Virus genome (UHGV): UHGV-0098625 | Direction: 5' to 3' (one strand) | Origin: a virus | DNA: 11,149 bases | Shown here: piece after piece, positions 204-11,149 of the stretch | How the letters are laid out: each line of letters starts with the position of its first letter | How positions within the stretch are numbered: the first letter of the stretch is position 1 | Position numbers and translations under genes: made by a program | The notes under the pieces: generated by a model | Told to the model about the DNA's origin: nothing | The model's database searches: none | The model's input: the letters and a program-made list of their open reading frames with translations, nothing else

Positions 204-571
204 CGTAAAATATCCTCTATACTGGTAAGCCCTTCATTATTTAGCCAGATCATTGCGTCATCCGGCAACTTGCTGTCTGGTTTTGCGTTTTTGAGAGAGG
301 AACTCAGTCGCTTAATCCACATTGTCAGCTCAGTAATGCGCCTGTGTTTGCCTTCCAGCTCAACGCGCAGCCTCCCTACCGTTAGTGCAATATCCTCGTT
401 CTCCTTGTCGCGGCGTTTGACGTATTGCTGGTTTCTTTCCCGTTCATCCAGCAGTGCCAGCACAATCGATGGTGTTACCAGCTCATGGAAAAGGTCCGCG
501 TCAAATCCCCAGTTGTCATGCATTGCCTGCTCTGCCGCTTCACGCAGTGCCTGAGAGTTAATTTCGCTCAC
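200..571 (-). CDS. Ea22-like early-left region protein (123 aa)
   Basis: ORF track 200..571. The N-terminus MSEINSQALREAAEQAMHD.WGFDADLFHELVTPSIVL matches the ead/Ea22-like family as I recall it; the C-terminal half differs. The start codon is GTG (cac at 569..571), overlapping the TGA of the upstream gene. Confidence 0.6.
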   Translation of the reverse strand: MSEINSQALREAAEQAMHDNWGFDADLFHELVTPSIVLALLDERERNQQYVKRRDKENEDIALTVGRLRVELEGKHRRITELTMWIKRLSSSLKNAKPDSKLPDDAMIWLNNEGLTSIEDILR

Positions 572-789
572 TTCGAACCTCTCTGTTTACTGATAAGCTC
601 CAGAACTTCCTGGCAACTTGCACAAGTCCGACAACCCTGAACGGCCAGGCGTCTTCGCTCATCTATGGGATCGCCACACTCACAACAATGAGTGGCAGAT
701 ACAGTCTGGTAGTTCAGACGACGCATTTTTATTGCTGTATTGCGCTGTAATTCTTCGATTTCTGATGCTGAATCAATGATGTCTGCCAT
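568..789 (-). CDS. DksA/TraR-family C4 zinc-finger protein (73 aa)
   Basis: ORF track 568..789. Contains C35-x2-C38-x17-C56-x2-C59, the TraR/DksA C4 zinc-finger spacing. GGAAG-type RBS upstream of the ATG at 789. Confidence 0.7.
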   Translation of the reverse strand: MADIIDSASEIEELQRNTAIKMRRLNYQTVSATHCCECGDPIDERRRLAVQGCRTCASCQEVLELISKQRGSK

Positions 790-842
790 CTTCCATTAAT
801 CCCTGAATTGTTGGTTAATACGCTTGAGGGTGAATACGAATA

Positions 843-865
843 ATAAAAAAGGAGCCTGTAGCTCC
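843..865 (-). terminator. putative intrinsic terminator after the 103-aa gene
   Basis: Plus-strand ggagc-ctgta-gctcc at 851..865; on the minus strand the hairpin is followed by a T-run (rc of taataaaaaa at 841..850). Short 5-6 bp stem. Confidence 0.45.
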
Positions 866-887
866 CTGATGATTTTGCTTTTCATGT

Positions 888-1199
888 TCACCGTTCCTTA
901 AAGACGCCGTTTAACATGCCGATCGCCAGGCTTAAATGAGTCGGTGTGAATCCCATCAGCGTTACCGTTTCGCGGTGCTTCTTCAGTACGCTACGGCAAA
1001 TGTCATCGACGTTTTTATCCGGAAACTGCTGTCTGGCTTTTTTGATTTCAGAATTAGCCTGACGGGCAATGCTGCGAAGGGCGTTTTCTTGCTGAGGTGT
1101 CACTGAACAAGCCCCATGTCGGCAAGCATAAGCACACAGAATATGAAGCCCGCTGCCAGAAAAATGCATTCCGTGGTTGTCATACCTGGTCTCTCTCAT
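888..1199 (-). CDS. hypothetical protein in the orf61 position of the lambda map (103 aa; alternative start at 1169 gives 93 aa)
   Basis: ORF track 888..1199. Starting at 1199 overlaps the stop of the orf63-like gene by 20 nt, whereas the internal ATG at 1169 would not. No family recognised. Confidence 0.55.
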   Translation of the reverse strand: MRETRYDNHGMHFSGSGLHILCAYACRHGACSVTPQQENALRSIARQANSEIKKARQQFPDKNVDDICRSVLKKHRETVTLMGFTPTHLSLAIGMLNGVFKER

Positions 1200-1371
1200 C
1201 TGCTTCTGCTTTCGCCACCATCATTTCCAGCTTTTGTGAAAGGGATGTGGCTAACGTATGAAATTCTTCGTCTGTTTCTACTGGTATTGGCACAAACCTG
1301 ACTCCAATTTGAGCAAGGCTATGTGCCATCTCAATACTCGTTCTTAACTCAACAGGAGATGCTTTGTGCAT
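1180..1371 (-). CDS. lambda orf63-like protein (63 aa)
   Basis: ORF track. Sequence [23 protein letters not shown]...EMMVAKAEADE closely matches lambda orf63 as I recall it, and it sits in the expected place upstream of orf60a/exo. Confidence 0.75.
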   Translation of the reverse strand: MHKASPVELRTSIEMAHSLAQIGVRFVPIPVETDEEFHTLATSLSQKLEMMVAKAEADERDQV

Positions 1372-1532
1372 ACCGCCTCCCGTTTATTATTTATCTTCTC
1401 AGCCAGCCGCTGTGCTTTCAGGGGATTTCGGATAACAGAAAGGCCGGGAAATACCCAGCCTCGCTTTGTAACGGAGTAGACGAAAGTGATCGCGCCTACC
1501 CGGATATTATCGTGAGGATGCTTCATCGCCAT
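1344..1532 (-). CDS. lambda orf60a-like protein (62 aa)
   Basis: ORF track. [60 protein letters not shown] matches lambda orf60a from memory; overlaps the exo stop. Confidence 0.8.
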
Positions 1533-2203
1533 TGCTCCCCAAATACAAAACCAATTTCAGCCAGTGCCTCGTCCATTTTTTCGATGAACTCCGGCACCAT
1601 CTCGTCAAAACTCGCCATGTACTTTTCATCCCGCTCAACCACGACATAATGCAGTCCTTCACGCTTCATACGCGGGTCATAGTTGGCAAAGTACCAGGCA
1701 TCTTTTCGCGTCACCCACATGCTGTACTGCACCTGGGCCATGTAAGCCGACTTTATGGCCTCGAAACCACCGAGCCGGAACTTCATGAAATCCCGGGAGG
1801 TAAACGGGCATTTCAGCTCAAGGCCATTGCCGTCACTGCATAAACCATCGGGAGAGCAGGCGGTGCGCATACTTTCGTCGCGATAGATGATCGGGGATTC
1901 AGTAACATTCACGCCGGAAGTAAACTCAAACAGGGCTCTGGCGTCGTTCTCGTACTGTTTTCCCCAGGCCAGCGCCTTAGCGTTAACTTCCGGAGCCACA
2001 CCGGTGCAAACCTCAGCAAGCAGGGTGTGGAAGTAGGACATTTTCATGTCAGGCCATTTCTTTCCGGAGCGGGGTTTTGCTATCACGTTGTGAACTTCTG
2101 AAGCGGTGATGACGCCGAGCCGTAATTTGTGCCATGCATCATCCCCCTGTTCGACAGCTCTCACGTCGATCCCGGTACGCTGCAGGATAATGTCCGGTGT
2201 CAT
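1523..2203 (-). CDS. exo: lambda exonuclease (Red-alpha), 226 aa
   Basis: ORF track. [69 protein letters not shown]... is essentially lambda Exo. ATGA overlap with the bet stop at 2200..2203. Confidence 0.97.
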
Positions 2204-2985
2204 GCTGCCACCTTCTGCTCAGTGGCTTTCTGTTTCAGGAATCCAAGAGCTTTCACTGCTTCGGCCTGTGTCAGTTCTGACGATGCGCGAATGTCGCGGC
2301 GAAATATCTGGGAACAGAGCGGCAATAAGTCGTCATCCCATGTTTTATCCAGGGCGATCAGCAGAGTGTTAATCTCCTGCATGGTTTCATCGTTAACCGG
2401 AGTGATGTCGCGTTCCGGCTGACGTTCTGCAGTGTATGCGGTATTTTCGACAATGCGCTCGGCTTCATCCTTGTCATAGATACCAGCAAATCCGAAGGCC
2501 AGACGGGCACACTGAATCATGGCTTTATGCCGTAACATCCGTTTGGGATGCGACTGCCACGGCCCCGTGATTTCTCTGCCTTCGCGAGTTTTGAATGGTT
2601 CGCGGCGGCATTCATCCATCCATTCGGTAACGCAGATCGGATGATTACGGTCTTTGCGGTAAATCCGGCATGTACAGGATTCATTGTCCTGCTCAAAGTC
2701 CATGCCATCAAACTGCTGGTTTTCATTGATGATGCGGGACCAGCCATCAACGCCCACCACCGGAACAATGCCGTTCTGCTTATCAGGGAAGGCGTAAATT
2801 TCTTTCGTCCACGGATTAAGGCCGTACTGGTTGGCGACGATCAACAATGCGATGAACTGCGCATCGCTGGCATCACCTTTAAATGCCGTCTGGCGAAGAG
2901 TGGTGATCAGTTCCTGTGGGTCGACAGAATCCATGCCGACACGTTCAGCCAGCTTCCCTGCCAGCGTTGCGAGTGCTGTACTCAT
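2200..2985 (-). CDS. bet: Red-beta single-strand annealing protein, 261 aa
   Basis: ORF track. [261 protein letters not shown] matches lambda Bet. Confidence 0.97.
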
Positions 2986-2990
2986 CCGTT

Positions 2991-3287
2991 TTATACCTCT
3001 GAATCAATATCAGCCTGATGGTGAGCAATGGTTTCAACTATGTACCGGATGTGTTCTGCCATGCGCTCCTGAAACTCAACATCGTCATCAAACGCACGGG
3101 TAATGGCTTTTTTGCTGGCCCCGTGGCGTTGCAAATGATCGATGCATAGCGATTCAAACAGGTGCTGGGGCAGGCCTTTTTCCATGTCGTCTGCCAGTTC
3201 TGCCTCTTTCTCTTCACGGGCGATCTGCTGGTAGTGACGCGCCCAGCTCTGAGCCTCAAGACGATCCTGAATGTAATAAGCGTTCAT
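2991..3287 (-). CDS. gam: Gam, RecBCD inhibitor (98-aa short form)
   Basis: ORF track. [94 protein letters not shown] matches lambda GamS. The upstream frame closes at a stop (3342..3344) with no in-frame ATG, so no long form is encoded. Confidence 0.95.
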
Positions 3288-3362
3288 GGCTGAACTCCTG
3301 AAAATGGCTGTGAAAATATCGCCCGCGAAATGCCAGGCTGATTAGGAAAACAGGAAAGGGGG

Positions 3363-3506
3363 TTAGTGAATGCTTTTGCTTGATCTCAGTTTCAGTATTA
3401 ATATCCATTTTTTATAAGCGTCGACGGCCTCACGAAACATCTTTTCATCGCCAATAAAAGTGGCGATAGTGAATTTAGTCTGGATAGCCATAATTGTTTG
3501 ATCCAT
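3363..3506 (-). CDS. kil: Kil host-killing / FtsZ-inhibiting protein, 47 aa
   Basis: Internal Met of track ORF 3363..3632: [47 protein letters not shown], which matches lambda Kil. GGAG about 10 nt upstream of the ATG at 3506. The 89-aa extended frame is not used. Confidence 0.9.
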
Positions 3507-3639
3507 TTTTTGGGACTCCTGGCTGATTAAGTATGTCGATAAGGCGTTTCCATCCGTCACGTAATTTACGGGTGATTCGTTCAAGTAAAGATTCGGAAGG
3601 GCAGCCAGCAACAGGCCACCCTGCAATGGCATATTGCAT
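3475..3639 (-). CDS. cIII: CIII, FtsH protease inhibitor that stabilises CII, 54 aa
   Basis: Absent from the ORF track (too short). Hand translation from the ATG at 3639 gives [54 protein letters not shown], stop at 3475..3477, AGGAG RBS upstream. Matches lambda CIII and overlaps the kil start in another frame, as in lambda. Confidence 0.9.
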   Translation of the reverse strand: MQYAIAGWPVAGCPSESLLERITRKLRDGWKRLIDILNQPGVPKNGSNNYGYPD

Positions 3640-3711
3640 GGTGTGCTCCTTATTTATACATAACGAAAAACGCCTCGAGTGAAGCGTAATTGGTATGCGG
3701 TAACGCCGCGC

Positions 3712-4080
3712 TCAGGCGGCCTTGATAGTCATATCATCTGAATCAAATATTCCTGATGTATCGATATCGGTAATTCTTATTCCTTCACTACCATCCATTG
3801 GAGGCCATCCTTCCTGACCATTTCCATCATTCCAGTCGAACTCACACACAACACCATATGCATTTAAGTCGCTTGAAATTGCTATAAGCAGAGCATGTTG
3901 CGCCAGCATGATTAATACAGCATTTAATACAGAGCCGTGTTTATTGAGTCGGTATTCAGAGTCTGACCAGAAATTATTAATCTGGTGAAGTTTTTCCTCT
4001 GTCATTACGTCATGGTCAATTTCAATTTCTATTGATGCTTTCCAGTCGTAATCAATGATGTATTTTTTGATGTTTGACAT
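3712..4080 (-). CDS. ea10: Ea10-like protein (lambda ea10/ssb position), 122 aa
   Basis: ORF track. Size, position between cIII and the N-proximal insert, and sequence (MSNIKKYIIDYDWKASIEIEIDHDVMTEEKLHQINNFWSDSEY...) fit lambda Ea10 as I recall it. GAGGAT RBS upstream of the ATG at 4080. Confidence 0.8.
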   Translation of the reverse strand: MSNIKKYIIDYDWKASIEIEIDHDVMTEEKLHQINNFWSDSEYRLNKHGSVLNAVLIMLAQHALLIAISSDLNAYGVVCEFDWNDGNGQEGWPPMDGSEGIRITDIDTSGIFDSDDMTIKAA

Positions 4081-4100
4081 CTATTCATATCCTCATAGAT

Positions 4101-4126
4101 AAAAAATCGCCCTCACACTGGAGGGC
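4101..4126 (-). terminator. intrinsic terminator in the pL operon (tL2-like), just upstream of ea10
   Basis: Plus-strand gccctc-acactg-gagggc at 4109..4126 preceded by aaaaaatc at 4101..4108. On the minus strand this is a GC-rich 6-bp stem followed by GATTTTTTAT. Confidence 0.55.
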
Positions 4127-4232
4127 AAAGAAGATTTCCAATAATCAGAACAAGTCGGCTCCTGTTTAGTTACGAGCGACATTGCTCAGTGTATTCACTC
4201 GTTGGAATGAATACACAGTGCTTATTCGCAGC

Positions 4233-4559
4233 CTACATAATCATTCCGGTTATTATTACCATTTCAATATCACTATCTTTCATAATGATTGGAGTTGAGT
4301 TATCAACTTTACTTTTACTCCATTTTCCTGCATCAGTTTTTACCGCTCCACAATAAGAAAGCCAATCATCATCACAATGTTCTGGAACACTAATTCTGAC
4401 AAGAACTCGTGATAGTGCTTTTTCGATACTTTCATCGCAATTAGCATTTGTGTAATTGCCGTGAGACAATTTCAAATCGTTAACTTCATCTTCATTGGCA
4501 TCAAAAATATAGATTTCAGTCGACTCTGGAACATTTTCATAAACCATTAAAACTTTCAT
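4233..4559 (-). CDS. hypothetical acidic protein, 108 aa (the track's 129-aa ORF begins at an upstream ATG at 4622)
   Basis: ORF track 4233..4622. Preferred start is the ATG at 4559 (MKVLMVYENVPESTEIY...), with GGGG 5 nt upstream and no overlap with the preceding gene. Rich in D/E; AT-rich DNA. No family recognised. Confidence 0.55.
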   Translation of the reverse strand: MKVLMVYENVPESTEIYIFDANEDEVNDLKLSHGNYTNANCDESIEKALSRVLVRISVPEHCDDDWLSYCGAVKTDAGKWSKSKVDNSTPIIMKDSDIEMVIITGMIM

Positions 4560-4606
4560 TTTTACCCCATATTGTTTATGCCAAAAATAAAGGCCGACTA
4601 TGCGTC

Positions 4607-5077
4607 CTAGTAGAATACCCAATTTTCTGTTTCTTGGTTGTGTCCAAAGTTATATTCAATATCTGGTGTTGATGTATCAATATTCTTCATCCCATCAACA
4701 AGAGTTGATACAACAGCCAAATCTTGTTTGATTCTCATTAAATGGTATTTCTTCCGGCGCAATAAACTTTCAATGGCAAGTTTCTTCGTTGGGAATGCAA
4801 AAGATCTTTCTGCATTTTTTGCTACTTTCTTAATTGCATATCTATTTCTCCTTTGTTTCCATTCCTGTAACCACTGATTTGGTACTGGTTTAAAATTAAC
4901 AATCCAATGCGCAGGAACCAACCATGCATAATGGTCTGTCTGATGAAAAGCTATATATTGAAGTGCGAATATTTTTATCCCATCTTCTTCAACTGTCGCC
5001 TGGAATCTCCAGAAAACAGGCATTCCATCATGTTCAGTTTCTGATTCAGGAAAAGGTACGCTCCATGATTTTGTCAT
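4607..5077 (-). CDS. hypothetical protein, 156 aa (basic C-terminal half)
   Basis: ORF track. GAGGTGA RBS immediately upstream of the ATG at 5077. AT-rich DNA. No family recognised. Confidence 0.6.
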   Translation of the reverse strand: MTKSWSVPFPESETEHDGMPVFWRFQATVEEDGIKIFALQYIAFHQTDHYAWLVPAHWIVNFKPVPNQWLQEWKQRRNRYAIKKVAKNAERSFAFPTKKLAIESLLRRKKYHLMRIKQDLAVVSTLVDGMKNIDTSTPDIEYNFGHNQETENWVFY

Positions 5078-5131
5078 ATCTCACCTCAAATAAGTGGTTT
5101 GCTGCGAAAATAAATCCGCTTAAGTTACCTG

Positions 5132-5269
5132 TTATTTATCCCACCAAGTTCCGCATCTATCTATCCAGTTACACCAATCATCGACACTCCATTTTGTTGT
5201 GTCGCATTTTGGCAACTGGCATGAATATCTACCTTCTTTGTAAAGTCGGCGTTTGACTGTCTTGAGCAT
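5132..5269 (-). CDS. putative small Cys/Trp-rich protein, 45 aa
   Basis: Absent from the ORF track. ATG at 5269 preceded by GAGGTGAG, which overlaps the N stop. Hand translation: MLKTVKRRLYKEGRYSCQLPKCDTTKWSVDDWCNWIDRCGTWWDK, stop at 5132..5134. Cysteines at 17, 22, 33, 39 and six Trp. Confidence 0.4.
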   Translation of the reverse strand: MLKTVKRRLYKEGRYSCQLPKCDTTKWSVDDWCNWIDRCGTWWDK

Positions 5270-5277
5270 GGCTCACC

Positions 5278-5610
5278 TCAATCGTAATAAGCTGGAATTG
5301 ATTTTCCGCGTTGCTTCTGGCGGCCTGAGCAAGTCACACCCATTTCACTGCGTGGCTTGCTGTACCATGTGCGCTGATTCTTGCGCTCAATACGCTGCAG
5401 GTTGCTTTCAATCTGTTCGTGGTATTCAGCCAGCACTGTAAGGTCTATCGGATTCAGTGCGCTTTCTACTCGTGATTTCGGTTTGCGATTCAGCGAGAGA
5501 ATAGGGCGGTTAACTGGTTTTGCGCTTACCCCAACCAACAGGGGATTTGCTGCTTTCCATTGAGCCTGTTTCTCTGCGCGACGTTCGCGGCGGCGTGTTT
5601 GTGCATCCAT
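5278..5610 (-). CDS. N: antitermination protein N, 110 aa
   Basis: ORF track. MDAQTRRRERRAEKQAQWKAANPLLVGVSAKPVNRPILSLNRKPKSRVESALNPIDLTVLAEYH.QIESNLQRIERKNQRTWYSKP matches lambda N (arginine-rich N-terminal motif); the C-terminal roughly 25 residues diverge. AGGAG RBS upstream of the ATG at 5610. Confidence 0.93.
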   Translation of the reverse strand: MDAQTRRRERRAEKQAQWKAANPLLVGVSAKPVNRPILSLNRKPKSRVESALNPIDLTVLAEYHEQIESNLQRIERKNQRTWYSKPRSEMGVTCSGRQKQRGKSIPAYYD

Positions 5611-5808
5611 CTGGATTCTCCTGTCAGTTAGCTTTGGTGATTGGATGGCCGGCGCTGAACCCCGGCTTACTGGTTAGAGCGCCCGCACTACCAGTGACGC
5701 TGTCTTGAGGCGCAGATTGGTTACTGCTTGCCATGAGCGCTGTTTATACATTGGTCGAGCATCAGCCTGCTCATTCATCCAATCCCAAAGCCTTCTGCTT
5801 TGAATGCT

Positions 5809-5839
5809 ACCCTTCTTCAGGGCTTAATTTTTAAGAGCG
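5809..5839 (-). promoter_or_regulatory. nutL (boxA + boxB) N-utilisation site
   Basis: Minus strand reads CGCTCTTAAAAATTAA (boxA, 5839..5824) followed by GCCCTGAAGAAGGGT (boxB, 5823..5809). Matches lambda nutL except the last boxB base, which gives a G-U closing pair. Confidence 0.85.
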
Positions 5840-5878
5840 TCACCTTCATGGTGGTCAGTGCGTCCTGCTGATGTGCTT

Positions 5879-5941
5879 AGTATCACCGCCAGTGGTATTT
5901 ATGTCAACACCGCCAGAGATAATTTATCACCGCAGATGGTT
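5879..5941 (-). promoter_or_regulatory. pL promoter with operators OL1, OL2, OL3
   Basis: OL1 tatcaccgccagtggta 5881..5897, OL2 caacaccgccagagata 5905..5921 and OL3 tatcaccgcagatggtt 5925..5941 are identical to lambda OL sites as recalled. Minus-strand -35 TTGACA (5907..5902) and -10 GATACT (5884..5879) with 17-bp spacing. Confidence 0.9.
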
Positions 5942-6090
5942 ATCTGTATGTTTTTTATATAGATTTATTTTTTGCAGGGTTGTGTGGATTGGGAAGGTGA
6001 TCGAGAGATCTGAATTGCGATGTTTAGTGAGTTGTATCTATTAATTTTGAAATAAATACAATTGGTTATGCGTTTTTTGGGGGGCGTTAG

Positions 6091-6120
6091 GCAAAGAAAA
6101 CCCGGCGCAGATGCCGGGTT
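6091..6120 (-). terminator. intrinsic terminator downstream of the rex-slot gene (timm-like)
   Basis: Minus-strand RNA AACCCGGC-AUCUGC-GCCGGGUU followed by UUCUUUG. On the plus strand the same hairpin is followed by GUGGUGG, so it is unidirectional. Confidence 0.7.
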
Positions 6121-6130
6121 GTGGTGGAGA

Positions 6131-7036
6131 TCAATGCTTATTTGGGAGTGCTGGTTTTTTTATCGACTCTAATAGCTCGGAGGCGTTACTAATCTTTTTG
6201 TTCCCAAGGTAATTTGGCAGTTTTTCCATTGCGTAATTATCGTGTAGCCATTTTCTGAACACGCCAAGTGCCTCAATAGGATAAATCCAAGCTGTTATAT
6301 GCTTATTTGCAGCTGACTGCCTGTAATTTTCGGGGAATAAATGTGGGTACTGCACCCTTTCCCCGAATTTCTCAGATAGCCCATTAGCTGTCCAATACTT
6401 TCCCCAGTGAATTCCAACACTTCCATCCAAAGATGTGGTGTCATCCATTGGGAATCCTCCTCCGATCAGGTTCATGGCAATGTCAGCTATCTCTCTGAAT
6501 ACTGCAAAATGAGTTGTCGGTATCTGATCGTTTAGCTTAATCCTTGCTCTATAGTTCTCGAATGAGATATCTATTGAAGCATTTGGGTTGTAATTTGACT
6601 TTTCATAAATCATTCGCTTAAGCGTGTACTCAGCCAAGCGAACAAAATTACCTATTGCGACTGACCTATCAAAATTGGTGGCATCTAGAGCGTAGTAACG
6701 GAGGATAGCCATGCAAACATAGTCAGGATAAGCATGAGTTTCCACGTTTGAGCTATTTAAAACGCGAGTGTATAGCTTTTCGACGTTATGAAACCCTTTC
6801 TCAGCTAAATACGCAGCTACTTTTTGACCTCTGGGTTTGTTTTTCTCTGTGTTCCAGTTTGATGTGAACACCCTCAGTGGCGTGTCATCAATGCCGCATA
6901 ACTTTGCGAGACCGTAGAGAGTTAGGTAAGGAGTTCCATCATTGAGAACGCCCATAGGAATATCATCAGAAACAACCTCTACTACAGGGAAAAGCTGCAT
7001 TTGATGCAGGGATTCGCTATTGCTGTTAATCGACAT
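6131..7036 (-). CDS. hypothetical 301-aa protein in the rexA/rexB position; candidate phage-exclusion / abortive-infection protein
   Basis: ORF track. ATG at 7036 with AAGGAAA RBS; lies 86 nt downstream of the cI stop on the same strand and is followed by the terminator at 6091..6120. AT-rich relative to cI, N and exo/bet. The N-terminal segment (LFPVVEVVSDDIPMGVLNDGTPYLTLYGLAKLCGID) resembles KilA-N/Bro-N-type domains by eye. Function inferred from position only. Confidence 0.85.
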   Translation of the reverse strand: MSINSNSESLHQMQLFPVVEVVSDDIPMGVLNDGTPYLTLYGLAKLCGIDDTPLRVFTSNWNTEKNKPRGQKVAAYLAEKGFHNVEKLYTRVLNSSNVETHAYPDYVCMAILRYYALDATNFDRSVAIGNFVRLAEYTLKRMIYEKSNYNPNASIDISFENYRARIKLNDQIPTTHFAVFREIADIAMNLIGGGFPMDDTTSLDGSVGIHWGKYWTANGLSEKFGERVQYPHLFPENYRQSAANKHITAWIYPIEALGVFRKWLHDNYAMEKLPNYLGNKKISNASELLESIKKPALPNKH

Positions 7037-7122
7037 ATCTTAATGATTTCCTTATTTTTATTGTAGGGATCTTCTTTTTTATTTCCTACATCTAGATGCG
7101 TATAAAGTCTCTTGCTGCGGAC

Positions 7123-7839
<717 letters not shown>

Positions 7840-7846
7840 TTAAATC

Positions 7847-7912
7847 TATCACCGCGAGGGATAAATATCTAACACCGTGCGTGTTGACTATTTTACCTCT
7901 AGCGGTGATAAT
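7847..7912. promoter_or_regulatory. OR3-OR2-OR1 operators with divergent promoters pRM (leftward) and pR (rightward)
   Basis: OR3 tatcaccgcgagggata 7847..7863; OR2 taacaccgtgcgtgttg 7870..7886; OR1 tacctctagcggtgata 7894..7910. pR -35 TTGACT 7884..7889 and -10 GATAAT 7907..7912 with 17-bp spacer. cro RBS AAGGAGG at 7926..7932. Confidence 0.9.
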
Positions 7913-7927
7913 AGTTGCATGTACTAA

Positions 7928-8137
<210 letters not shown>

Positions 8138-8144
8138 ATAACCC

Positions 8145-8176
8145 CGCTCTTACACATTCCAGCCCTGAAAAAGGGC
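8145..8176 (+). promoter_or_regulatory. nutR (boxA + boxB)
   Basis: cgctctta at 8145..8152, spacer cacattcca, then boxB gccctgaaaaagggc at 8162..8176 (5-bp stem, GAAAA loop). Matches lambda nutR. Confidence 0.88.
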
Positions 8177-8255
8177 ATCAAATTAAACCACACCTATGGT
8201 GTATGCATTTATTTGCATACATTCAATCAATTGTTATCTAAGGAAATACTTACAT

Positions 8256-8534
8256 ATGCAACTTACAAGTACTCGCAAGAAAGCGAATGCAATTACAAGC
8301 AACATCCTGAATCGAATTGCTGTACGTGGTCAGCGAAAGGTTGCCGACGCGTTAGGGATTAATGAATCGCAAATTTCGCGATGGAAAGACAGCTTCATCC
8401 CAAAAATGGGAATGCTTCTGGCTGTTCTTGAATGGGGTGTTGAAGACGAGGAGTTGGCGGAACTGGCTAAGCAAGTAGCCAGAATGCTGACAAAAGAAAA
8501 AGCCCCGAAGAACGGCGAATTCTTCGAGGCCTGA
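8256..8534 (+). CDS. cII: CII-like transcriptional activator, 92 aa (not the lambda allele)
   Basis: Track ORF 8196..8534; preferred start is the ATG at 8256 with AAGGA RBS, at the position of the lambda cII start. The conserved core SQISRWK...IPK..MLLAVLEWGV matches the CII family; the N- and C-termini differ from lambda CII. Confidence 0.8.
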   Translation: MQLTSTRKKANAITSNILNRIAVRGQRKVADALGINESQISRWKDSFIPKMGMLLAVLEWGVEDEELAELAKQVARMLTKEKAPKNGEFFEA

Positions 8535-8568
8535 TGTAGAAAGACTGGATCAATCCACAGGAGTAATT

Positions 8569-8730
8569 ATGACAAAACGTCGTAAGAAATACCAGGAAAA
8601 AGAAGAGATTCGACACCCTGATTCACCTGAGGGATTAGTGGTAGCCGCAGCAAATAACAGGGCGTTCGCAGAACGCCTTGTTGGTGTTTACAGACTAGCC
8701 AAAGCAGGAGTGAAACATGGGCGTCGTTAA
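8569..8730 (+). CDS. putative small basic protein, 53 aa
   Basis: Absent from the ORF track. ATG at 8569 with AGGAG 7 nt upstream. Hand translation: [53 protein letters not shown], stop at 8728..8730. Overlaps the O start by 14 nt in another frame. Confidence 0.3.
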   Translation: MTKRRKKYQEKEEIRHPDSPEGLVVAAANNRAFAERLVGVYRLAKAGVKHGRR

Positions 8731-9538
8731 GTTAGCTGATTACAGGCCTCAACTGGAGGTCGTGGAGCATCGCGTGGCAGATACCGAAGATGGTTTCATG
8801 CGCGTTGCTAACGAGATTACCGACAGTCTGCTGATGGCTGATTTAACCGTCCGGCAGTTGAAGGTGATGCTCGCTATCATGCGCAAGACATACGGATTCA
8901 ATAAGCCGATGGATCGACTCACAAACACGCAGATAGCAGCCATGACAGGTATTCATCACACTCATGTTTGCGCTGCCAAGCGCCAGCTTATTGAGCGTAA
9001 ATTCCTCATTGCTGATGGCGTGAAAATCGGAGTGAACAAGGTGGTTTCTCAGTGGATTAGCCAGGACAGCTTAACATTAGCTAAAACAGCTAATAAAACA
9101 TTAGCCAAGTCGGCTAATGGGTATAAGCCAAGTCAGCTAAACACAAAAGACAATATACAAAAGACAATAAATACAAATACCCCCTTACCCCCTAACGGGG
9201 GCGGCGATGGGCAGGTTAAACCTGAACGTCGCAAGGCAGAACGAATCGACTACGAATCCTTCCTGAACGCCTACAACACCGAAGTCGGTGACAGACTTCC
9301 ACACGCTGTTGCGGTCAACGAGAAACGAAAACGCCGCCTGAAGAAAATCATCCCGCAACTGAAAACGCCAAACGTGGACGGTTTCAGAGCGTATGTCAGG
9401 GCGTTTGTGCATCAGGCCAAGCCGTTTTACTTCGGAGACAACGACACGGGCTGGACGGCTGATTTTGATTACCTGCTGAGAGAAGATTCGTTAACGGGAG
9501 TTCGTGAAGGGAAGTTTGCAGACAGGGGGATTGCATGA
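8717..9538 (+). CDS. O: replication initiator, O family, 273 aa
   Basis: ORF track. AGGAG RBS. The N-terminal region ([32 protein letters not shown]) resembles the lambda O N-terminal DNA-binding domain (lambda: LTKRQFKVLLAILRKTYGWNKPMDRITDSQL). Origin-like iterons lie inside the gene. Stop overlaps the helicase start (ATGA). Confidence 0.85.
9057..9180. other. putative replication origin inside O: four iterons plus an AT-rich tract
   Basis: Iterons ttagccaggacagcttaa 9057..9074, ttagctaaaacagctaa 9077..9093, ttagccaagtcggctaa 9101..9117, taagccaagtcagctaa 9124..9140 (each an internal inverted repeat, about 23-bp period), then the A/T-rich 9141..9180 (acacaaaagacaatatacaaaagacaataaatacaaatac). 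Confidence 0.75.
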
Positions 9539-10911
9539 AACAGGATATCGAAGCGAGCGTTATCGGTGGCCTGCTGATTGGTGGATTAACACCAACTGCC
9601 AGTGACGTTCTGGCAACGCTTGAGCCGGAAGCGTTTTCAATTCCGCTCTACCGGAAAGCCTTCGAGGTTATCCGCAAGCAGGCGCGAAACAGAAATTTAA
9701 TCGACGCGCTGATGGTCGCCGAGGCGTGCGGAGAGGAGCATTTCACGTCAATCCTGATGACCAGCAAAAACTGCCCGAGTGCCGCAAACCTGAAGGGATA
9801 TGCCGGAATGGTCGCGGATAACTATCACCGCCGTCTGGTGCTGGAAATCATGGATGAAATGCGTGAACCAATTCAGAGCGGAACCATCGACGCATCGAGT
9901 CAGGCGATGGATGAGCTTGTAAAGCGTCTTTCAGCCATCAGAAAGCCCCGTGACGAGGTTAAACCTGTACGGTTAGGGGAAATCATCACCGACTACACTG
10001 ACACGCTTGACAGGCGTCTGAGGAACGGAGAAGAGTCAGATACCCTGAAGACCGGAATCGAAGAACTTGATGCCATCACCGGAGGGATGAACGCGGAAGA
10101 CCTGGTGATAATCGCTGCTCGTCCTGGTATGGGGAAAACCGAACTGGCGCTGAAGATTGCCGAAGGCGTTGCAAGCCGCGTTATTCCTGGTTCTGACGTC
10201 CGGCGCGGGGTATTGATTTTCTCAATGGAAATGAGCGCATTGCAGATTGCAGAGCGAAGCATTGCCAACGCCGGGAGGATGTCGGTTAGCGTACTGCGAA
10301 ATCCTGCATCGATGGATGACGAGGGCTGGGCACGTGTTGCTAACGGCATGAGTCAGCTTGCAGATTTGGATGTATGGGTAGTCGATGCCTCGCGGTTATC
10401 GGTCGAAGAAATTCGCTCAATCGCAGAACGGCACAAACAGGAAAATCCAAACCTGTCACTCATCATGGCGGATTATCTTGGCCTGATTGAGAAGCCGAAA
10501 GCAGACCGCAACGACCTCGCAATTGCTCACATCTCAGGAAGCCTGAAGGCGATGGCGAAAGACCTGAAAACGCCTGTTATCTCCCTAAGTCAACTTTCGC
10601 GCGATGTTGAGAAGCGACCAAACAAACGCCCGACAAACGCAGATTTGCGTGATTCAGGAAGCATTGAACAGGACGCAGACTCAATCATCATGCTCTATCG
10701 GGAAGCGGTATATGACGAGAACAGTAGCGCCGCGCCATTTGCTGAAATCATCGTGACGAAAAACCGTTTTGGCTCACTTGGTACGGTTTACCAGCGGTTC
10801 TGCAACGGACACTTTGTTGCATGTGACCAGGATGAAGCCAGACAGATTTGCACAGCATCAAATGCACCTGCTGCTCGTGGCAGACGATATGCACAAGGGG
10901 CTGACGTATGA
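9535..10911 (+). CDS. DnaB-family replicative helicase, 458 aa (takes the place of lambda P)
   Basis: ORF track. Walker [17 protein letters not shown], Walker B-like LIMADYLGL, and the IISLSQLSR and [14 protein letters not shown] motifs typical of DnaB-type helicases. Size and position match the P22 gene 12-type helicase. Confidence 0.9.
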
Positions 10912-10991
10912 CCATCTACATCACTGAGCTTGTAACAGGCCTGCTGGTAATCGCAGGCCTTTTTATTTGGGGGAGAGTAAATCGTGGTTGA
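10908..10991 (+). CDS. putative small hydrophobic protein, 27 aa
   Basis: ATG overlaps the helicase TGA (ATGA at 10908..10911); AAGGGG upstream. Hand translation [27 protein letters not shown], one predicted transmembrane segment. Very short, so speculative. Confidence 0.25.
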
Positions 10992-11149
10992 GTTTATGCT
11001 CGTCGCACTCAAATGCGTTGGCGTTGGATGGATTCTTCTAACGTTTTTTATTGTTCTGCATAGCTACATTCGCCTTGTGAATGACGGTAAAGATCCATGG
11101 TATACGTTGTTTGGCGCTGCATTTGTCTGGGTGATTATCGGTGTTATGC
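10984..11149 (+). CDS. putative small membrane protein, partial (runs off the window end)
   Basis: GGGGGAGAG RBS 6 nt upstream of GTG 10984 (in-frame ATG at 10996). Frame stays open to 11149: ..MLVALKCVGVGWILLTFFIVLHSYIRLVNDGKDPWYTLFGAAFVWVIIGVM, with two hydrophobic stretches. Confidence 0.35.
   Translation, partial: MVEFMLVALKCVGVGWILLTFFIVLHSYIRLVNDGKDPWYTLFGAAFVWVIIGVM

Follow-up and report, generated by a model that had tools for sequence, protein, structure and literature searches.

The DNA analyzed here, a stretch of 11,149 nt referred to below as the window, covers the early region only, the remainder of the prophage lying outside it. Its left part is closely related to phage lambda. 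Nucleotide alignment gave 97-100% identity to lambda across the Red genes, cIII, cI, OR, cro, and nutR; the aligned segments lie at 353-4221 (97.4%), 5354-5639 (99%), 5784-6120 (91%), and 7123-8258 (98.2%, with 100% over 7951-8258). The lambda-type Red and early-left genes occupy 1523-3639 on the minus strand (97-99% nt identity to lambda) and consist of exo (1523-2203), bet (2200-2985), gamS (2991-3287, the 98-aa form of Gam), kil (3363-3506), and cIII (3475-3639), all read from that strand. The identity of their products to those of lambda is 98.2% for Exo, 99.6% for Bet, 95.9% for GamS, 97.9% for Kil, and 98.1% for CIII. At Rfam gathering thresholds, the Lambda_thermo element of cIII (3594-3652) was the sole match in the window, leaving none in 8256-10911.

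The immunity region follows the same pattern. The cI repressor is of the lambda immunity type (237 aa, 7123-7836, minus strand) and shares 234 of its 237 residues with lambda CI (98.7%), and Cro (66 aa, 7937-8137, plus strand) is identical to its lambda counterpart at 66/66 residues (100%). OR3-OR2-OR1 with PRM and PR were placed at 7847-7910 by alignment to lambda; OR2 is unchanged, OR3 carries an A>G at 7856, and OR1 a G>A at 7901. A further G>A at 7913, beside the -10 element of PR, is unique to the window, and OL1-3 match lambda exactly. nutR (8145-8176, plus strand; boxA CGCTCTTA, boxB GCCCTGAAAAAGGGC) was assigned from the lambda annotation and lies inside the block that is 100% identical to lambda. 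An earlier note on this DNA had described cI, cro, OL/OR, exo, bet, gam, kil, and cIII as essentially lambda, and the alignments bear this out, with 95.9-100% amino acid identity for the proteins and two single-base changes in OR. On the basis of its lambda-type cI, cro, and operators, the prophage would be assigned to the lambda immunity group (imm-lambda). rexA and rexB were absent from all frames in a tblastn search of the window with the lambda proteins. In the place of rexAB, adjoining cI, is bstA, a putative abortive-infection gene whose product matches phrog_6287 (6e-133) and the PADLOC BstA model (1.3e-105). A candidate aba element of 63 bp (7008-7070) is flanked by ATCCCT repeats, the 6-mer repeat alone being statistically non-significant. 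In BTP1, bstA likewise adjoins the repressor gene (PMC8585504). BstA systems pair a protein encoded downstream of the prophage repressor with a cognate aba element that spans the start of its gene.

The alignment to lambda ends at 8258, the G of the cII ATG, with divergence from 8259, which agrees with the earlier proposal that the lambda-like stretch stops right after the cII start codon. Between 8259 and 10907, the only significant similarity to lambda is a patch of 67% identity within the cII core (8411-8576). The block immediately before the divergence (8159-8258) contains no lambda mismatch and holds boxB of nutR, the tR1 region, the presumed -10 element of PRE, and the ribosome site and ATG of cII. 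It is also shared with Sf6, for which the last mismatch to the window is at 8158. Because lambda and the Sf6-type phages do not differ over 8159-8258, the exchange can only be bounded to this block and not pinpointed within it, and the point of lambda divergence is not necessarily the crossover point.

Downstream of this shared linker, cII encodes a 92-aa activator of the P22-C1/Sf6-gp41 type (8256-8534, plus strand; Pfam Phage_CII PF05269, 1.7e-42). The protein is 97.8% identical to Sf6 gp41 and HK544 CII, 84.8% to P22 C1, and 51.1% to lambda CII, and the region is 99% identical at the nucleotide level to Sf6, HK446, HK542, and Huey. Alignment with lambda CII shows a conserved core (SQISRWK...MLLAVLEWGV) between N- and C-termini that diverge, as had been noted from the first reading of the sequence. 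Codons 4-8 contain TTGCGAGTACTTGT (8265-8278, minus strand), read as TTGC-N6-TTGT and predicted to be the CII/C1 site at the -35 position of PRE; the annotations of P22 and Sf6 place their C1/gp41 sites at the same position. The gene thus combines the Phage_CII domain with a TTGC-N6-TTGC/T-type site in its own 5' end, the two marks of a CII/C1 activator. As this site lies to the right of the lambda divergence, CII and the PRE -35 element would have been inherited together. On the minus strand, AAGTAT (8246-8251) is presumably the PRE -10, and the PRE annotated in the Sf6 record maps to 8246-8274. At the 3' end of cII, a stem of 14 pairs leading into a T tract (8500-8532, minus strand) is a predicted oop-type antisense terminator, corresponding in position to the annotated oop terminator of P22. 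A scan of 8100-11149 for consensus sigma-70 promoters found none, so PRE and the oop promoter Po are assigned by position and homology only.

Comparison of several phages located a second mosaic joint at 8544-8576, between cII and the replication genes. This conserved boundary block (ACTGGATCAATCCACAGGAGTAATTATGAC...) hardly varies among lambda, P22, Sf6, Stx2a_WGPS8, and the window, and corresponds to the 'bsq5 boundary sequence' of Sf6. To its left, the cII part (8259-8543) is 99% identical at the nucleotide level to phages of the Sf6/HK446 type; from 8544, where homology to the HK97 and Stx-phage types begins, the O-helicase part matches these instead (8544-10977). Judged from these alignments, the non-lambda block is itself a composite of a cII part and an O-helicase part, joined at 8544-8576. 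The 53-aa ORF that follows (8569-8730, plus strand) overlaps the start of O. It is 100% identical to Sf6 gp42 and HK544 gp45, and the HK544 and Sf6 records label it as a homologue of HK97 gp53, a putative assignment; it matches phrog_1331 (1.4e-37) and has no Pfam match.

The O-type initiator (273 aa, 8717-9538, plus strand) carries a Phage_rep_O domain at residues 19-113 (Pfam PF04492, 5.8e-33) and matches phrog_345 (3.4e-105). It is laid out as an N-terminal origin-binding domain, a linker encoded by the iterons, and a C-terminal domain resembling that of P22 gp18. The whole protein is 98.9% identical to HK544 O and 49-51% to P22 gp18. With both P22 gp18 and lambda O, the N-domain shares about 40% of its residues; the C-domain shares 61% with P22 gp18, 27% with Sf6 gp43, and 18% with lambda O; in tblastn, lambda O aligned only via its residues 19-152 (42%). 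A repeat search found four predicted origin iterons of 18 nt within the gene (ATTAGCCAAGTCGGCTAA type, imperfect palindromes; 9056-9140, plus strand). Their start-to-start spacing of 20/24/23 is that of lambda and P22, both of which have iterons of about 20 bp in the middle of O or 18 (PMC8022706), but their sequence differs. The pattern, which was built from these four copies, has four occurrences in the window, all of them in this array, against 0.01 expected by chance. The same iterons are present in the Stx2a_WGPS8, STEC1587, HK544, and mEp213 loci; lambda, P22, and Sf6 lack the pattern. Next to them lies a predicted AT-rich unwinding tract (9141-9180, plus strand), recognized from its GC content (20% at 9140-9179) and from two copies of ACAAAAGACAATA[TA]; these tandem 14-mers recur unchanged in P22 (32926-32953), and nucleotide homology to P22 (81%) starts at 9133. 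Relative to P22, the N-domain of O together with the iterons would appear as a separate specificity unit.

The initiator is followed by a DnaB-family replicative helicase of 458 aa (9535-10911, plus strand), whose start overlaps the O stop (ATGA). Pfam recovers the DnaB N-domain (4e-13) and DnaB_C (9.5e-78), and an alignment to E. coli DnaB (PDB 6bbm, E 2e-66) spans the entire protein and shows the ATPase motifs to be conserved (the Walker A segment AARPGMGKT, SQLSR, and a segment of 13 residues). It is 99.3% identical to the HK544 helicase and shares 413 of its 458 residues (90.2%) with P22 gp12, a protein of equal length. P22 gp12 is a DnaB-type helicase known to be active as helicase and ATPase and to support replication without host DnaB/DnaC (PMC8022706, citing Wickner 1984). 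No significant match to lambda P was found by tblastn in the six frames of the window (best E-value 0.074, over 47 residues), and lambda ren gave none in any frame. A value of 25% obtained by global alignment of lambda P with the helicase is meaningless and was superseded by the tblastn search.

At the right boundary (10908-10991, plus strand), a ninA-like ORF of 27 codons is accompanied by a tR2-type terminator found by a terminator scan (stem 10937-10960, T tract). Homology to lambda returns three bases ahead of the helicase stop, at 10908, and continues to 10977 (95.7% nt identity), matching the lambda ren-ninB interval; the boundary is also 90% identical to the Sf6 'bsq6 boundary sequence'/tR2. 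Altogether, alignment with lambda, Sf6, P22, Stx2a_WGPS8, HK544, mEp213, and STEC1587 gives a segment map with breakpoints at 8159-8258, 8544-8576, and 10908-10977. CII and O, at 51.1% and 29.2% identity to their lambda counterparts, are not as close to lambda as the flanking genes. The mosaic outlined in the earlier note therefore stands, including its O-type initiator followed by a 458-aa DnaB-family helicase without lambda P, on which the ORFs, Pfam, and tblastn agree, and its P22 gene 18/gene 12-type arrangement, to which the similarities of the helicase, initiator, and cII to gp12, gp18, and C1 all point.

What kind of replication module this is can be considered by comparison with known phages. 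An O-P module of the lambda type was rejected, there being no P homologue and only 18% identity between the C-domain of O and the P-binding domain of lambda O. The lambda segment cII-O-P-ren occupies the same slot, between nutR/tR1 and tR2/ninB, and resembles the window in a homologous O N-domain, four in-gene iterons, a conserved CII core, and a CII site located in codons 4-8 of cII; however, lambda has the P loader and ren, an unrelated O C-domain, and iterons of different sequence. The P22 segment c1-orf48-18-12 has the same gene order, the same lengths of C1 and gp12, and an identical AT-rich tract and iteron spacing. It differs in the O N-domain and in its iterons (ATTAGCC..GGCTAA versus ATTTACC..GGTAAA), in orf48, which is unrelated to the 53-aa ORF (18.8% identity), and in its immunity region (c2/cro) and recombination genes (erf/abc). 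With the initiator domain, in-gene iterons and AT tract, a gp12-like helicase, and no P loader all present, the module would be classed as P22 gene 18/12-type. It may equally be described as an HK97-type gp53-gp54-gp55 module, since HK97 genes 53-54(O)-55(P) are nearly identical to the whole orf53-O-helicase module, iterons included (97.8% nt over 8544-10939). Similarity to HK97 sets in only at 8544, which implies that cII and the immunity region of HK97 are of another type.

By nucleotide identity, E. coli phages, and not P22, are the nearest relatives. The replication module is about 98% identical to those of HK544, HK446, mEp213, and several Stx phages. HK544 (NC_019767) has a lambda-type cI (98.3% aa identity to the window) and cro (100%), an Sf6-type cII, the 53-aa ORF, O, and the DnaB-type helicase, with gene order and joint matching those of the window, at 98.1% nt identity over 8100-10939. 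It differs in having Erf-type rather than Red recombination genes, in two different small ORFs downstream of cI where the window has bstA, and in one iteron that departs from the pattern. A prophage of E. coli STEC1587 (NZ_CP129259, at tRNA-Thr/proA) is closer still, with 99.9% nt identity and 4 mismatches over 5315-10977, a span covering N, bstA, cI, cro, cII, orf53, O, and the helicase, and with Red genes 98.5% identical; it differs at 4222-5314, the ral/sieB position, where STEC1587 has an Nmad5-family gene, and to the left of 608 and the right of 10977. Sf6 is 99% identical over 8143-8747 (nutR, cII, gene 42, and the first initiator codons), and its annotated bsq5 and bsq6 coincide with junctions of the window. 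Its replication proteins gp43 and gp44 are of another type (27.7% and 32.7%) with 11-bp iterons, and its immunity region is 434-like. The cro-cII joint is present in 16 of 5,426 complete E. coli genomes. A literature search on lambda-immP22 hybrids returned nothing relevant.

In the mechanism proposed here, derepression of the lambda-type PR would lead to an O-type initiator whose N-domain binds the four iterons inside its own gene, and the C-domain of O would bring the hexameric DnaB-type helicase encoded by the phage to the adjoining AT-rich tract. In lambda, P captures host DnaB. Since the phage would use its own helicase instead, host DnaB/DnaC should not be needed, as homology to gp12 suggests; host primase and Pol III would serve replication. 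A three-component system, in which the helicase needs a loader (host DnaC or the product of the 53-aa ORF), is improbable. The 53-aa ORF is indeed conserved with the module and overlaps the O start, but P22 has the unrelated orf48 in this position despite a 90% identical helicase, which disfavors a specific partnership between the 53-aa ORF and the helicase. Moreover, the O C-domain tracks the helicase type (gp18 61% with a 90% identical helicase, Sf6 gp43 27% with 33%, and lambda O 18% with P), which points to direct contact between O and the helicase.

We consider it unlikely that the locus is a defective remnant that no longer replicates or is induced, its arrangement being without current function. 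The GamL leader has a +1 frameshift, so some prophage decay is possible, and lambdoid remnants are common in E. coli, with 4,461 of the 5,426 complete genomes matching some part of the window. However, full-length reading frames without internal stops are present for cI, cro, cII, orf53, O, the helicase, exo, bet, gamS, kil, cIII, and N, GamS is intact, and the STEC1587 relative keeps int, xis, nin genes, and Q beside tRNA-Thr. An assembly chimera or contamination with laboratory lambda, brought to mind by a break as suspiciously neat as the last base of the cII ATG, is hardly credible given the identical joint in the independently sequenced HK544, in the complete STEC1587 chromosome (100% over 7940-8740), and in the 16 complete E. 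coli genomes, the 97-98% rather than 100% identity of the lambda-like parts to laboratory lambda, and the position of the junction in a block common to both parental types, as real homologous exchange predicts.

Very probably, then, the window comes from a natural lambdoid prophage, most likely one residing in E. coli, and represents the early region of a mosaic that combines lambda immunity with P22/HK97-type replication; no feature of the sequence speaks against this reading. Lambda-type Red genes, N/nut sites, and an immunity region (cI, OL/OR, cro) would have been fused to non-lambda genes inside a 100-bp linker (nutR-tR1-PRE -10) common to heteroimmune lambdoid phages, bringing in on its 3' side a cII of the P22-C1/Sf6 type, the 53-aa ORF, and the HK97-type (P22 gene 18/12-like) replication module. 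The mosaic would have been made by recombination at short conserved gene-boundary linkers, namely 8159-8258, 8544-8576, and 10908-10977. Co-transfer of functional modules among lambdoid phages has been described (PMC9836094), which lends general support, replication genes not being discussed there. The mosaic arrangement itself is already known, the same joint occurring in HK544, and the prophage is an ordinary lambda-like one. BstA of BTP1 reportedly blocks P22-type replicons; a prophage with both BstA and such a replicon would therefore depend on a cognate aba, for which 7008-7070 is the candidate. Tentatively, the place of the break might be no accident: the nutR-tR1-PRE(-10) block of about 100 bp might be a preferred recombination linker and, jointly with this, BstA and the P22-type replicon might coexist through the cognate aba. 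If the former were true, immunity would be swapped there while each CII/C1 keeps its own -35 site.

Beyond correct annotation, the significance of these findings is small, and bstA may be the more useful lead for work on phage defence. The window is a clean textbook case of lambdoid modular evolution, in which immunity, cII, and replication are swapped at short linkers while specificity pairs appear to be kept together (the initiator N-domain with the iterons, the initiator C-domain with the helicase, and CII with the PRE site). Lambda immunity in a prophage does not imply lambda-like replication, and this one should be independent of the P-DnaB-DnaK/DnaJ pathway of lambda. The point bears on any extension of lambda genetics to wild E. 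coli prophages, among them relatives of Stx phages with this replication module.

The window (11,149 bases) corresponds to the early region of a lambdoid prophage, with its gene order taken from the ORF listing and from alignment to annotated records. The leftward genes run from an Ea22-like end, a DksA-type zinc-finger ORF and homologues of orf61, orf63 and orf60a to exo (1523-2203), bet (2200-2985), gamS (2991-3287, 98 aa), kil, cIII (3475-3639), an ea10/DUF2528 gene (3712-4080), ORFs of 129 aa (4233-4622, phrog_4658) and 156 aa (4607-5077, phrog_1636) and N (5278-5610, minus strand). The nutL/OL control region separates N from a 301-aa ORF (6131-7036, minus strand) located between OL and cI (7123-7836). 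Beyond OR, the rightward genes are cro (7937-8137, followed by nutR), cII (8256-8534), a 53-aa ORF annotated as an HK97 gp53 homologue (8569-8730), an O-type initiator (8717-9538) and a 458-aa DnaB-family helicase (9535-10911), with the ninA/tR2 boundary to its right.

At the nucleotide level (blastn), lambda matches the window over 353-4221 (97.4% identity), 5354-5639 (99%), 5784-6120 (91%) and 7123-8258 (98.2%, rising to 100% over 7951-8258), is unmatched over 8259-10907 except for a stretch of 67% identity within the conserved core of cII (8411-8576), and returns at 10908-10977 (95.7%). The earlier note would have been refuted had the cII and O/helicase segments proved as close to lambda as the flanking genes, and they are not. 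Its view that the flanking genes are essentially lambda is borne out by amino acid identities of 95.9-100% (CI 98.7%, Cro 100%, Exo 98.2%, Bet 99.6%, GamS 95.9%, Kil 97.9%, CIII 98.1%) and by the operators, OL1-3 and OR2 being identical to those of lambda and OR1 and OR3 carrying one substitution each. Identity is low for CII (51.1%) and O (29.2%); as had been read from the sequence, the CII termini diverge around a conserved core (SQISRWK...MLLAVLEWGV). Lambda P, ren, rexA, rexB, ral and sieB were not found in the window by tblastn in all frames.

The operator substitutions relative to lambda (OR3 A>G at 7856; OR1 G>A, central position, at 7901) are also present in STEC1587, an E. coli strain with a near-identical prophage (NZ_CP129259), while G>A at 7913, beside the PR -10 (GATAATAGT), is found in the window only. 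In the nutL boxB stem, C>T at 5809 would convert the closing pair from G-C to G-U. A one-base insertion relative to lambda at about 3304 (minus strand), in the N-terminal part that only the long form of Gam has, breaks the 138-aa GamL frame and leaves GamS intact, and the STEC1587 record likewise annotates the short form only. The cIII mRNA thermoregulator is kept (Rfam Lambda_thermo, 3594-3652, minus strand, 88.5 bits). N is of the Sf6 type (99.1% aa); compared with lambda N (92.5% overall), its N-terminal arginine-rich part is identical and its C-terminus diverges, lambda nucleotide homology ending at 5354. The segment at the ral/sieB position (4222-5314) is replaced by the 129-aa and 156-aa ORFs, the DNA spanning the latter matching, at 98.6% identity, the region that is annotated L0079 in 933W; the STEC1587 prophage has an Nmad5-family gene there, despite its near-identity elsewhere.

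The proposed switch directly after the cII start codon is exact, 8258 corresponding to lambda 38362, the G that ends this codon. However, Sf6-type sequence can be aligned from 8143 on with a single mismatch at 8158, and lambda without mismatch up to 8258, so both parental types are identical over 8159-8258 and the left exchange is bounded only to this interval. It contains nutR boxB, the tR1 region, the putative PRE -10 (minus-strand AAGTAT at 8246-8251) and the cII ribosome site with its ATG. A predicted CII/C1 site (TTGCGAGTACTTGT, minus strand, 8265-8278, cII codons 4-8) lies just right of the lambda divergence point, and P22 and Sf6 have a CII/C1-type site annotated at the same position. 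The CII activator is passed on along with its -35 site. At the middle junction, HK97/Stx-type homology begins at 8544 and Sf6 homology runs on to 8747; a block here (ACTGGATCAATCCACAGGAGTAATTATGAC), nearly invariant across five aligned phages, carries the label boundary sequence bsq5 in the Sf6 record, and an oop-type terminator lies at 8500-8532 (minus strand). At the right junction, which corresponds to Sf6 boundary sequence bsq6, lambda homology resumes at 10908, 3 bases before the helicase stop, and spans a ninA-like 27-codon ORF (10909-10992, plus strand) overlapping a tR2-type terminator (10937-10960). From 10978 on, the DNA matches mEp213, vB_EcoP-611R6 and HZ41, and not lambda, HK544 or STEC1587, a change of relatives that indicates a further mosaic joint; a small hydrophobic ORF (MLVALKCVGVGWILLTFFIV..., 10997-11149, plus strand) starts after the ninA-like ORF and runs off the window. 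Exchanges are not confined to gene boundaries but occur wherever a shared-sequence patch exists, as indicated by mEp213 cII (L007, the mEp213 locus, 3114-3392), an intragenic chimera of lambda type over residues 1-55 (55/55) and of Sf6/window type from about residue 63 to 92 (32/33 over residues 56-88), with its switch point inside the conserved MLLAVLEWGV core.

Pfam domains support the reading of replication by an O-type initiator and a DnaB-family helicase instead of lambda P: Phage_CII in cII (1.7e-42), Phage_rep_O in O (5.8e-33, residues 19-113), and the DnaB N-domain (4e-13) and DnaB_C (9.5e-78) in the helicase. The whole helicase sequence aligns with E. coli DnaB (PDB 6bbm, E 2e-66), with conservation of the Walker A segment AARPGMGKT, SQLSR and a stretch of 13 residues. 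A P22 gene 18/gene 12-type arrangement was rightly recognized: P22 gp12 has the same length as the helicase and 413/458 identical residues (90.2%), gp18 is 49-51% identical to O, and C1, 92 aa like the window CII, is 84.8% identical. By nucleotide match, the closest relatives of the replication block are coliphages, with HK97 genes 53-54-55 matching 8544-10939 at 97.8%, and HK544, HK446, mEp213, vB_EcoP-611R6, HZ41 and many Stx phages (2851, YYZ-2008, 1717, Nil2 and Stx2a_WGPS8 among them) at 97-98%; the cII segment is 99% identical to Sf6, HK446, HK542, Huey and mEpX2.

Within O, four 18-nt imperfect palindromes (ATTAGCCAGGACAGCTTA, ATTAGCTAAAACAGCTAA, ATTAGCCAAGTCGGCTAA, ATAAGCCAAGTCAGCTAA) form iterons at 9056-9140. 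A degenerate pattern occurs four times in the window, all within this interval (0.01 expected by chance), but, as it was built from the four copies, what is informative is that the rest of the window lacks it and how it is distributed among relatives: it was found in the Stx2a_WGPS8, STEC1587, HK544 and mEp213 loci and not in those of lambda, P22 or Sf6. Start-to-start spacing is 20/24/23, exactly as in the lambda (locus L001, 10358-10444) and P22 (locus L005, 32839-32925) iterons, whose sequences are different; the geometry of the origin is kept, and its recognition specificity varies. Directly right of the iterons is an AT-rich tract (20% GC) containing two 14-mers identical in P22, whose nucleotide homology (81%) starts at 9133, right where the iterons finish. 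Comparison of O by domain (N-domain, 1-113; C-domain, 153-273) with partner type gave 40% and 61% for P22 gp18 (partner helicase 90% identical), 28% and 27% for Sf6 gp43 (33%), and 39% and 18% for lambda O, whose partner, lambda P, is unrelated. From this, we read O as two probable specificity units, the N-domain with its iterons and the C-domain with its helicase partner.

The 301-aa ORF beside cI, where lambda has rexA/rexB, is a homologue of the abortive-infection protein BstA (phrog_6287, 6e-133; PADLOC BstA, 1.3e-105). In prophage BTP1, bstA likewise lies downstream of the repressor, and BstA keeps a P22 18/12 phagemid from replicating unless the 63-bp self-immunity element aba, which spans the bstA start, is present (PMC8585504). 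BTP1 BstA blocks P22-type replicons, and this prophage carries a replicon of that type. A candidate 63-bp stretch across the bstA start (7008-7070), with a direct ATCCCT repeat at both ends, is alike in layout to BTP1 aba, which is bounded by CCCGCC repeats; the hexamer repeat alone is not significant.

An assembly artefact is ruled out by HK544, STEC1587 and complete genomes. Phage HK544 (NC_019767) joins lambda-type cI (98.3%) and cro (100%) to the same cII, 53-aa ORF, O and helicase (97.8-100% aa), differing in its Erf instead of Red recombination. The STEC1587 prophage, at tRNA-Thr/proA, is 99.9% identical over 5315-10977 and also has the Red genes (98.5%). The joint is present in 16 of 5,426 complete E. 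coli genomes (801-bp probe across cro-cII-orf53, the 53-aa ORF; coverage at least 80%). The arrangement is therefore already in databases, and the finding is correct but ordinary, its exact joint being known from a named phage and several genomes. That lambdoid phages are mosaic and pass on functional modules as units is established (PMC9836094), and the title of another paper reports lambda Red as promoting recombination between diverged sequences (PMC2327257).

P22 gp12 is described as a DnaB-type helicase, and iterons are placed in the middle of O/18 in lambda and P22, in works cited in PMC8022706 (Wickner 1984 and others). By homology with P22 18/12, the block is probably an initiator-helicase module, in which O is expected to bind the iterons, with opening of the AT-rich tract and recruitment, through the O C-domain, of the hexameric helicase that the phage itself encodes. 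Lambda-style P-mediated capture of host DnaB has no counterpart here. Being downstream of lambda-type PR/OR and nutR, the module would be kept off in the lysogen by cI of the lambda type and, with N, be expressed by read-through.
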